Below, one piece after another: positions 30,801 to 33,800 of a stretch of 64,000 nt of DNA. A program made the position numbers. Each line of letters starts with the position of its first letter. The first letter of the stretch is position 1. Origin of the DNA: an uncultured Gemmatimonadaceae bacterium (GTDB lineage Bacteria; Gemmatimonadota; Gemmatimonadetes; Gemmatimonadales; Gemmatimonadaceae); the NCBI GenBank assembly GCA_963716745.1, contig OY970320.1:384001-448000 (forward strand). Reading direction: 5' to 3'.

Positions 30801-33800
30801 CGGTCGCTCACTTCGGCCACGTCCTTGTCCCCTCGTCCGCTCACGCAGAGGAGGACCGGTGCGTCCGACGGCCACCGCCCCTTCTGCGAGGCCATCCAGG
30901 CGACGGCATGCGCCGTCTCGAGCGCGGGGATGATCCCCTCGAGCTGGCTGAGCATGACGAAGCCGCCGAGCGCCTCTTCGTCGCCGACCGAGACGTACGT
31001 CGCGCGACCCGAGTCCTTCAGGTGGGAGTGCTCGGGTCCGACGCCGGGATAGTCGAGACCAGCAGAAATGGAGTGCGCGGGATGCACCTGGCCCGCGTCA
31101 TCTTGCAGCAGATAGCTCAGCGCGCCGTGCAGCACCCCGGGGCGCCCGCGCGTGAGGGAGGCGGAATGGCGTCCGCTGTCGAGGCCCTCGCCCGCGGCCT
31201 CGACGCCCACCAGCTCCACGTCGCGGTCGTTCACGAACGCGTGGAAGATGCCCATCGCGTTCGAACCGCCGCCTACGCACGCGACCACCGTCGCTGGAAG
31301 CCGACCCGCCTGTTCGATCATCTGCGCGCGCGCCTCCCGACCGATCACCGACTGGAAATCCCGCACGATGCGCGGATAGGGCGCCGGTCCCACCACGGAA
31401 CCAATGATGTAATGACTGTCCGTCACGTTGGTGACCCAGTCGCGGATCGCCTCGCTCGTCGCGTCCTTCAACGTGCGCGTGCCCGACGTCACCGGCATCA
31501 CAGTCGCCCCCATCAGTTTCATTCGGAAGACATTCAGCGCCTGGCGCCGCATGTCCTCCTCCCCCATGTACACAACGCACTGCAATCCGAACCGGGCGCA
31601 GATCGTGGCCGTCGCCACCCCATGCTGTCCGGCGCCCGTCTCGGCGATGATGCGCCGTTTCCCCATGCGCCGCGCGAGCAGCGCCTGACCCACCGTGTTG
31701 TTGATCTTGTGCGCGCCGGTGTGGTTGAGATCCTCCCGTTTCAGGAAGACCCGCGCCCCCACGGCCTCGGAGAAACGCGGCGCGTCGGTCAGCGGAGAAG
31801 GACGACCGACGTAGCCCTTGAGCAATCCATCCAGCTCCCGCTGGAAGGCCGGATCGCGCTGCGCTTCGGCGTACGCGGCCTCGAGCGCATCGAGGGCGGG
31901 CACGAGCGTCTCGGGCACATAGCGGCCGCCATAGGGGCCGAAGCGGTCAGGTGCGCTCACGTCCGTCATTCACTGCCCTCTCGTGCCGCGCACCGCGTCG
32001 GCGAAGACACGCATGCGCTCGTGGTCCTTGATCCCCGGACTCGATTCTACCCCGGAGGAGACGTCGACGATATCCGGCGCCAGCGCGGCGATCGCGTGCG
32101 CCACGTTCTCGGGCGAGAGTCCGCCGCTCACGACGAGGCGCGACCGCACGGGCCGCGCCCCCTCAGCCGCCCGGACCCAATCAAAGGCCCGTCCGGTGCC
32201 GCCGAGCCGTCCCGGCACGAGCGTGTCGTACAGCAGTGCGTCGGCCTCGCCATCGAGTTCGTCCACGCGGTCGGCCGGCGCGGCGCCGCTGATCCGCAGC
32301 ACCGCCCAGACGCGCGCGCCGCTCGCTTCGCGCACGCGCCGCACCTCGCGTGGCGTGGGATCGCCGTGAAGTTGCACGATATCGAGCCGCGCGATGCGCA
32401 CCACGCTGGCGATCGCTTCGATATCCGCGTCGCGGAAGACGCCGACACGTTGCGCGGCGCCGCCAGTTCCATCGAGCACCAGGGCGGCGGCCGCCGGGTC
32501 CATGTTCCGAGGGCCGCCTGCGAAGATCACACCCACGTACTGCGCCCCGCACATCGCCGCGGCGCGCGCGTCGGGCGCGCGCGTGAGGCCGCAGACCTTC
32601 AGTTCAGCGCCCATGCTCGCCGCCGCGATCCGTTCCGCGCGCCACGCCCGTCAGCGTGCGCACCGCCGACGCGGGATCGGCGGAGGCGGAGAGCGCCGAG
32701 CCCACGAGCACCGCATCGGCGCCGCTCGCGGCGGCGCGTTCGACGTCCGCGCGGTCGCGCACGCCGCTCTCGCTCACCGCCACGCGGTCGCCTGGCACCA
32801 TGGGGAGCAGTCGCGCCGCGACGGCGGGATCCACCACGAGCGTCTCGAGATCGCGCTGGTTCACGCCGATCGCCGGCGCTCGCGTGGCCGATGCGCGCGC
32901 CAGTTCCCGTTCGGTGCGCACCTCCACGAGCGGCTCGAGCCCGAGCGCGATCGCCTCGGCGGCAAGTTCATCGAGCAGCGCGGGGTCGAGCGCGCGAGCG
33001 ATCAGCAGCACCGCCGAGGCGCCCGCCGCGCGGGCCTCCCAGAGTTGCGTTCGGTCCACCACGAAGTCCTTCCGGAGGAGAGGAACGGACACCGCGGCAC
33101 GTGCATCGGCGAGGTCGGCGAGCGATCCGCCGAAGTGCATGGGCTCGGTGAGGATGGAGATCGCCGCGGCGCCCCCGGCCGCGTAGGCCATGGCCTGCGC
33201 ACTCGCCGAGAGCGCCGTATTGATCTCCCCCTTGGAGGGCGAGCGGCGCTTCACTTCGGCGACGACAGCGATCGTTCCGCCGGCGCGAAGTGCCGCCGCG
33301 AAAGCGGGGACCGGTACGTGGCGCGCCTCAGCGGCCGTGCGTTCGAGCTCGGCTCGCCGGCTCGCCGAGAGTGCCCGGACCCGGTCTCGGGATTCGGCGA
33401 TGATCTTACCCAGCGTGCCGCCGGGCGGGGTCCAGGTTGGCATCGACGCTTGCACTTCGGGAATTATTCGGTTATCGTCCAGTTCGGCGTTACTTCGGGC
33501 ACCACTCATTCGTTAAGCTATCACCTCTACGGGACTTGACGCATGGCGCTCACCAAACGGCAGCGGGAGATCCTCGACTACCTCGCGGCGTACTCGGAGC
33601 AGAACGGCTACGCTCCGAGCTTCGAGGAGATCGCGCGTCAGTTCAACTATAACTCGCTGGCCACGGTTCACGAGCATCTCAGCAACCTCGAGCGCAAGGG
33701 TTACATCAAGCGTTCGTACAATGAGAGCCGCGCGATCGAGATCCTGCCGTCGGACGTGTTCCCGAAGGCCGTCGAGTTGCCGCTGCTGGGATCGGTGGCG

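Follow-up and report, generated by a model that had tools for sequence, protein, structure and literature searches.

What controls lexA in the Gemmatimonadota, and which other genes answer to the same control? The question is raised by two direct repeats of the form TTCG-N7-TTCG that stand in the 99-bp gap between the divergent genes trpC and lexA of an uncultured Gemmatimonadaceae bacterium. We analysed a window of 64,000 nucleotides around them (contig OY970320.1, positions 384,001 to 448,000); positions given without the word contig count along this window, and the features of the locus are collected in Table 1. The survey's finding had read the repeat as the LexA (SOS) operator of the order Gemmatimonadales, with two boxes before lexA, overlapping boxes before recA and a further box before a radical-SAM-imuA-imuB-dnaE2 operon. 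We recovered the boxes at all three places, and both boxes at lexA have the fuller form TTCGG-N6-TTCGG.

The gene downstream of the boxes is, as judged from its domains, a canonical lexA, with a wHTH domain, an Ala-Gly cleavage site and a Ser-Lys dyad. When aligned to solved LexA chains, its cleavage site (Ala87-Gly88) and catalytic residues (Ser122 and Lys160) are intact and correspond to Ala84-Gly85, Ser119 and Lys156 of Escherichia coli, and it is the sole LexA match in this genome. The gene lies antisense between trpD and trpC (32604-35233). Because the trpC start codon is only 6 bp from the lexA -35 hexamer, the 5' region of trpC overlaps the putative operators, and the trp genes could be affected by LexA or by lexA transcription. 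Just 3' of lexA, overlapping the trpD stop, there is a G+C-rich hairpin followed by a short T run (34202-34228), a possible terminator that our scan did not call.

Table 1. Features of the lexA locus (window positions).
Feature	Position	Strand	Remarks
trpC, divergent	32604..33443	-	TrpC models match, below their cut-offs; ATG at 33443
-35 hexamer, inferred, TTGCAC	33450..33455	+	T, T, G columns 85, 95, 84% in 75 class promoters
LexA box 1 (putative operator), TTCGG-GAATTA-TTCGG	33456..33471	+	Fills a putative 17-bp promoter spacer 33456-33472; core 33456-33470 (TTCG-GGAATTA-TTCG), 87 bp upstream of lexA ATG
-10 hexamer, inferred, TATCGT	33473..33478	+	T, A, final T 96, 95, 97% in 75 class promoters
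LexA box 2 (putative operator), TTCGG-CGTTAC-TTCGG	33483..33498	+	Over expected transcription start; core 33483-33497 (TTCG-GCGTTAC-TTCG), 60 bp upstream of lexA ATG
lexA	33543..34151	+	202 aa; TIGR00498 205 bits vs cut-off 111
Glu44 codon (helix 3)	33672..33674	+	Counterpart of E. coli Glu45; varies together with base 5 in both half-sites
trpD	34202..35233	-	TIGR01245 above cut-off

Conservation upstream of lexA extends well past the order. A lexA gene was matched in 147 of the 151 genomes of the phylum, and 90 loci were examined: the 30 best matches, all from the organism's own family and including its own genome, and 60 loci taken for genus spread and chosen before their upstream DNA was seen. 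TTCG-N7-TTCG lies within 150 bp of the lexA start in 56/56 genomes of the order, with at least two boxes in 53 of them, so that the multiple boxes reported by the survey were borne out in our own set. Its restriction of the box to Gemmatimonadales was too narrow: in the other orders of the class, 19 of 20 genomes carry a box within 150 bp and 17 carry two, and in other classes it is found in 8/14 genomes within 150 bp and in 11/14 within 300 bp. Class promoters share the consensus TTCGG-N4-Y-N-TTCGG, for which the other classes have TTCGC-N4-Y-N-TTCGC. The spacer is nearly fixed, with 145 matches at length 7 in the 76 lexA promoters of the class versus 2, 1, 0, 7 and 2 at lengths 3, 4, 5, 6 and 8; lesser dyad counts at 9-13 and 20 reflect the distance between the two lexA boxes. 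A scan for double boxes with TA after the first, using one genome per species, returned at least 120 stretches. Among the 120 listed, 104 stand before a co-oriented lexA, and these come from Gemmatimonadota (Gemmatimonadales and Longimicrobiales), two unclassified bacteria, three Kerfeldbacteria and one Falkowbacteria, the last two groups being presumably Patescibacteria. In the Falkowbacteria record (L113), the double box is separated from lexA by a small ORF of about 117 aa. Of the other 16 listed stretches, two belong to truncated Gemmatimonadota contigs and 14 to records of other phyla, where several are simple repeats (one of the 16 was inferred from the total).

Within this genome alone, the bare core would not have attracted attention. 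Using rough gene calls on both strands, we found TTCG-N7-TTCG in 40 of 3,011 upstream stretches of 200 bp, versus 33 for spacer 6 and 26 for spacer 9; the codon-phased spacers 5 and 8 gave 72 and 67. The survey's background of 18 in 3,338 was therefore not reproduced, and we saw no enrichment of the core (40 versus 26-33 of 3,011). The case for an operator thus rests on conservation across genomes. We built a scoring matrix from the lexA, recA and radical-SAM sites of relatives; in this genome 12 of the 3,011 upstream stretches score at least 16 and 66 reach a threshold of 12. Box 1 of lexA has the second best score in the genome, behind the mutasome site only.

The position of the boxes within the promoter suggests how they may act. 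Box 1 begins directly after the hexamer TTGCAC and stops two bases short of TATCGT, and this TTG-box-TA geometry is kept in 75/83 boxed lexA promoters. In the other classes, the -35 region is TTGACT in 11/11 lexA promoters and the -10 region is TATAAT or TATATT. A strict sigma-70 consensus scan did not call the lexA promoter, which we infer from this conservation: box 1 would occupy the spacer of a sigma-70 promoter, and box 2 would cover the start site. A promoter or transcript element could produce similar regularities, and cUUCGg is a tetraloop hairpin motif. If the TTCG units acted in RNA, or as part of the promoter consensus, one would be less surprised that the first half-site of box 1 is often C-TTCG-G (65-66%) and that the boxes upstream of gyrB, described below, all read in the sense direction of the inferred 5' leader. 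Stems of at least 3 bp flank only 11/145 first and 18/145 second half-sites, however, and on these counts we rejected the tetraloop reading; moreover, box 1 stands upstream of where transcription is expected to begin, boxes at recA and the radical-SAM gene are found in either orientation, and the spacing is constant at 7 while the spacer letters vary. We regard an RNA or promoter element as very improbable, and return to the operator reading.

That reading gains from the box recurring at other SOS genes. The recA site (contig 590326-590352, minus strand) consists of three half-sites in 11-bp phase, 63-74 bp upstream of recA, in agreement with the overlapping boxes of the survey. We searched 30 genomes for recA and matched 29, leaving out one second, partial match. 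A box lies within 170 bp of recA in 15/15 genomes of the order, which upholds its conservation in our own set, and in 7/10 of the other orders (three of them reversed), that is, in 22/25 class relatives. Within the same distance, no box was found in 3/10 genomes of the other orders and in 4/4 of other classes. In the recA boxes, base 5 of the first half is frequently off-consensus (G in 43%), as would suit a weaker operator. The mutasome site (contig 1657755) is 54 bp upstream of the radical-SAM gene of an operon that by Pfam comprises a radical SAM protein, a RecA-like ImuA, an IMS_C ImuB and a DnaE-type polymerase. The survey had checked this site in one genome; we searched 38 genomes for the radical-SAM gene and matched 26, the weakest of which may be paralogs, and the exact core is present upstream in 24/26, in either orientation. 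These promoters show 26 matches at spacer 7 versus at most 3 at any other spacer from 0 to 15. The dnaE2 of this genome is split over three reading frames (contig 1660928-1664631; L212:4029-7732), and an RpoD-like gene (contig 2499331-2500227) and recX also appear split, with assembly indels as the likely cause.

If LexA is the protein that reads the box, then changes in its recognition helix might accompany changes in the box. Helix 3 of the LexA encoded here reads NSLATVHEHL; its Ala40 aligns with E. coli Asn41, and both Asn41 and Glu45 of E. coli LexA are named as DNA-contacting in PMC3091678. For exact boxes, we set the bases at positions 5 and 16 against residue 44 of the corresponding LexA. 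In the 88 loci with Glu44, which span three phyla, G occupies 322/330 of these positions: 293/298 in the class Gemmatimonadetes (76 loci), 27/30 in Patescibacteria (11 loci) and 2/2 in one acidobacterium. In the 16 loci with Lys44, C occupies 43/48, with one G: 35/38 and no G in other Gemmatimonadota classes (11 loci), and 8/10 in Acidobacteriota (5 loci), where the single G comes from a match outside the promoter's own repeat. Three Arg44 loci give 5 C, 5 T and no G in 10 positions, one Ala44 locus gives C and C, and one Asp and two Gln loci show mixed bases. Base 5 of the box thus tracks helix-3 residue 44, G going with Glu and C with Lys or Arg. Glutamate accepts from the cytosine opposite G, and lysine or arginine donates to the guanine opposite C; the pairing fits this textbook readout chemistry, and residue 44 may determine the choice of base 5.

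The loci in these counts are kin and not independent, and on a quick, midpoint-rooted tree of 102 LexA proteins the covariation amounts to roughly three or four lineage switches. On that tree, the Glu/TTCGG state occupies the Gemmatimonadetes branch (24 rows, SH-aLRT 99) and appears also in one protein amid Lys/TTCGC rows (L059), in one acidobacterium and in Patescibacteria. As the tree holds no outside reference proteins, neither alphaproteobacterial nor from Firmicutes, we claim neither an origin nor a transfer.

The correlate with a LexA residue also bears on whether another conserved regulator could bind the site: a second LexA-like protein, a trp regulator, or LexA only together with a partner. 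The region is common to divergent trpC, which adjoins lexA in 29/30 family loci, and many relatives carry a second LexA-like gene at 27-33% identity. The box at lexA persists, though, where trpC was undetected nearby (found in 0/14 loci of other classes, which are short) and in Patescibacteria, and it recurs at recA and the mutasome; nor was the LexA-like paralog found here or in most genomes of the group labelled f2, and where it was inspected no box stands upstream of it (5/5). We therefore hold another regulator to be improbable. That second gene (L637-L641, with a helix like STKTVSELL) is present in most family genomes.

The box is not confined to the Gemmatimonadota either. In Patescibacteria, 51/61 genomes gave a lexA match, and we took the 30 best-matching loci together with 4 that the pattern search had brought up. 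De novo, the leading dyad there is TTCG-N7-TTCG (13/34 within 200 bp); among the 30 unselected loci, 12 have a box within 300 bp, mostly TTCGG, and several more lexA loci have boxes with one or two mismatches. The TTG-box-TA geometry is kept in 13/13, with an ATVHEH-type LexA helix as in Gemmatimonadota. A Patescibacteria LexA direct-repeat motif resembling that of Acidobacteria is said to have been described by Sanchez-Osuna, Barbe and Erill in 2017. The two systems are alike in the direct repeat, mostly TTCGG, in promoter geometry and in helix type. The Gemmatimonadota differ in being another phylum with a G+C-rich spacer, usually two boxes per lexA promoter, and a regulon with the imuABC mutasome and gyrB. 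As compared on the Patescibacteria promoters we sampled rather than on the published consensus, the two boxes are very probably the same motif, and what we describe in Gemmatimonadota probably extends the published Patescibacteria-type box to a new phylum.

In Acidobacteriota, where 45/46 genomes gave a lexA match and the best 30 loci, one of them from genome G239, were taken, TTCG-N7-TTCG is again the top dyad (8/30 within 200 bp, 9/30 within 300 bp), mostly as TTCGC. Several acidobacterial lexA promoters carry the related direct repeats TTxCAC (L291, L292, L297, L311) and TTACGC (L301, L302, L308, L313, L314) with the same 11-bp period, and these are paired with other helix-3 residues (Asn40; Gly-Thr). 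In the LexA tree, four Asn40 proteins with TTxCAC boxes form one branch (support 97). From these comparisons, the box appears to belong to a wider direct-repeat family, TTCG-S-N4-Y-N-TTCG-S, common to Gemmatimonadota, Patescibacteria and many Acidobacteriota.

A comparable repeat, GTTC-N7-GTTC, is reported for Acidobacterium capsulatum as well as for the Alphaproteobacteria. For the latter it is documented in PMC8565304, PMC9578287 (Table 1) and PMC3091678, and it shares with the present box the direct repeat, the 11-bp period and a TTC core in the same register. The boxes differ in that G precedes TTC here in only 11-19% of first and 41-51% of second halves, with 11-12% and 41-43% for box 1; GG after TTC is almost invariant, and GTTC-N7-GTTC has 9 matches in the 76 class promoters, versus 145 for TTCG-N7-TTCG. 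The palindrome of Firmicutes and Actinobacteria, CGAAC-N4-GTTCG (PMC9578287, Table 1), likewise contains TTCG in its half-site, but its halves are inverted, and in the same 76 promoters CGAA-Nn-TTCG never exceeded 4 matches over spacers 0 to 20, with none at N6. In Balneolaeota, a direct repeat found by similar footprinting logic, TTACACATATTTTWTACATA, was confirmed by EMSA, with a regulon of recA, TLS polymerases and a radical-SAM gene (PMC7739468); its half-site sequence differs from TTCGG. LexA is held to have evolved direct-repeat recognition several times (PMC7739468, citing work on Verrucomicrobia, Patescibacteria and Acidobacterium). Among the validated LexA proteins in Table S2 of the supplement to PMC8565304, two are from Patescibacteria, and a text search of that supplement returned no gemmatimonad entry. 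The literature we searched, which covers few subscription journals, contained no TTCG-N7-TTCG motif strings, no description of a gemmatimonad LexA binding motif or of a Gemmatimonas SOS response, and no report of gyrB in a LexA regulon; on topoisomerase genes, PMC8565304 names parCE in Bacteroidetes and topoisomerases in Vibrionaceae. What the present analysis adds is the phylum-wide reach of the box, the gyrB sites and the residue-44 correlate.

How large is the regulon? For the strong sites of this genome, the survey's view of a small SOS regulon stands: as it had stated, the promoters of uvrA, uvrB, ssb and ruvA have no box, the 300 bp upstream of each scoring 2.6, 8.7, 3.2 and -0.3. The same view does not carry over to the family. 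We searched 10 relatives with a strict 16-mer pattern, which gave 120 matches versus 21 for the reversed control. By our own gene caller, 89 of the 102 matches examined are non-coding, and about half of these non-coding matches precede genes met only once. The genes that recur are lexA, the radical-SAM gene (6), gyrB (4), a TIGR03916-like radical SAM (3), imuA (2), uvrB (2) and an unnamed family (2); recA, uvrA and dnaE2 have one strict match each. A gyrB box scoring at least 16 is present in 8/11 family genomes and 0/18 outside, and in 22/24 further family genomes outside the discovery set (21/23 without genome G266). In total, 30/36 family genomes reach this score, and two of the six misses keep the exact core. 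For uvrB, the same score is reached in 7/12 family genomes and 3/18 outside. The family in these counts is presumably the Gemmatimonadaceae, most of whose records have a LexA 74-89% identical to the one here. Judged by these sites, the regulon would be small for the strong sites of this genome and larger in the family, with gyrB probably and uvrB often included.

The gyrB sites may be real boxes and yet do nothing through LexA, in which case they would be an inherited leader element and the regulon would be the classic core plus scattered uvrB. They are limited to one family, always stand on the sense strand, mostly about 45 bp upstream of the start and downstream of the inferred promoter, and are degenerate in this genome, where gyrB has TTCGG-N6-ATCGG at the same position (a core mismatch, score 12.7); furthermore, E. 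coli gyrB is not DNA-damage-inducible according to PMC8565304. Against this, the 22 high-scoring sites outside the discovery set keep both TTCGG halves while their spacer letters vary, SOS-controlled parCE is recorded in Bacteroidetes (PMC8565304), and GyrB has a single match in this genome, so that the GyrB query found no separate parE. We think it unlikely that these sites are without LexA function, although this alternative keeps a sizeable share of the probability.

Other candidates were less consistent. We rejected uvrA as a general member (score at least 16 in only 2/30) and the RpoD-like sigma factor (one relative has a perfect box and this genome a near-box at contig 2500352, but only 3/29 orthologs are at 16 or above, at scattered positions). 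An anti-sigma gene (contig 1364355) is not supported as a member: this genome, the congener and one relative have boxes there, but 4 others have none. A gene whose 137-aa product matches neither Pfam nor NCBIfam (contig 2205467-2205880; L213:968-1381) has a strong box 54 bp upstream. In the congener, the box is 256 bp upstream with about 200 bp of other DNA between, and 0/16 distant homologs have it (one locus left out), so that this box is genus-level at most. In two relatives, a TIGR03916-like DNA-repair radical-SAM gene, below its cut-off, follows a box at three loci (L400, L409, L426). In two relatives as well, a protein family with no NCBIfam match follows a promoter-spacer box (L431:1555-2178, L440:1569-1937) and is a candidate SOS gene; queries with either gene gave no match in this genome. 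In the contig 1227396 region, a non-coding TTCGGCTAGTGTTCGG is identical here and in the congener (L597) and stands about 200 bp away from an uncharacterised gene.

Taken together, the operator reading is well supported by conservation at lexA, recA and the mutasome, and we consider it very likely that the single canonical LexA of the class Gemmatimonadetes has TTCGG-N4-Y-N-TTCGG as its operator; a dimer on the direct repeat would block sigma-70 initiation until RecA-stimulated cleavage lifts the repression. Binding, repression and induction by damage are carried over from the LexA family. In this mechanism, a LexA dimer would sit on two direct half-sites one helical turn apart. With operator 1 in the -35/-10 spacer and operator 2 on the start site, bound LexA would block sigma-70 RNA polymerase. 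DNA damage would give rise to RecA filaments and hence to LexA self-cleavage at Ala87-Gly88 by Ser122/Lys160, freeing lexA, recA-recX and the radical SAM-imuA-imuB-dnaE2 operon; within the family, release would probably cover gyrB and often uvrB, and the two operators at lexA would allow tight autoregulation. We give about an even chance to a broader proposal drawn from sequence comparison: one direct-repeat LexA family across Gemmatimonadota, Acidobacteriota and Patescibacteria, in which a one-residue switch (Glu44 with TTCGG, Lys/Arg44 with TTCGC) flipped several times independently, with a possible second switch (Asn40 with TTxCAC), and in which a Gemmatimonadaceae-level family recruited gyrB into its SOS regulon.

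These results provide a predicted SOS operator, with its regulon, for an abundant phylum of soil and water bacteria that has few cultured members, and connect this operator with the ones of two other phyla. The pairing of Glu/Lys-44 with G/C bears on the long-standing question of how LexA shifts its binding motif. If the gyrB site is functional, SOS control would extend to what seems to be the only type II topoisomerase B subunit of the cell; supercoiling would then be tied to damage control, and gyrB would be ill suited as a reference in expression studies of these bacteria.
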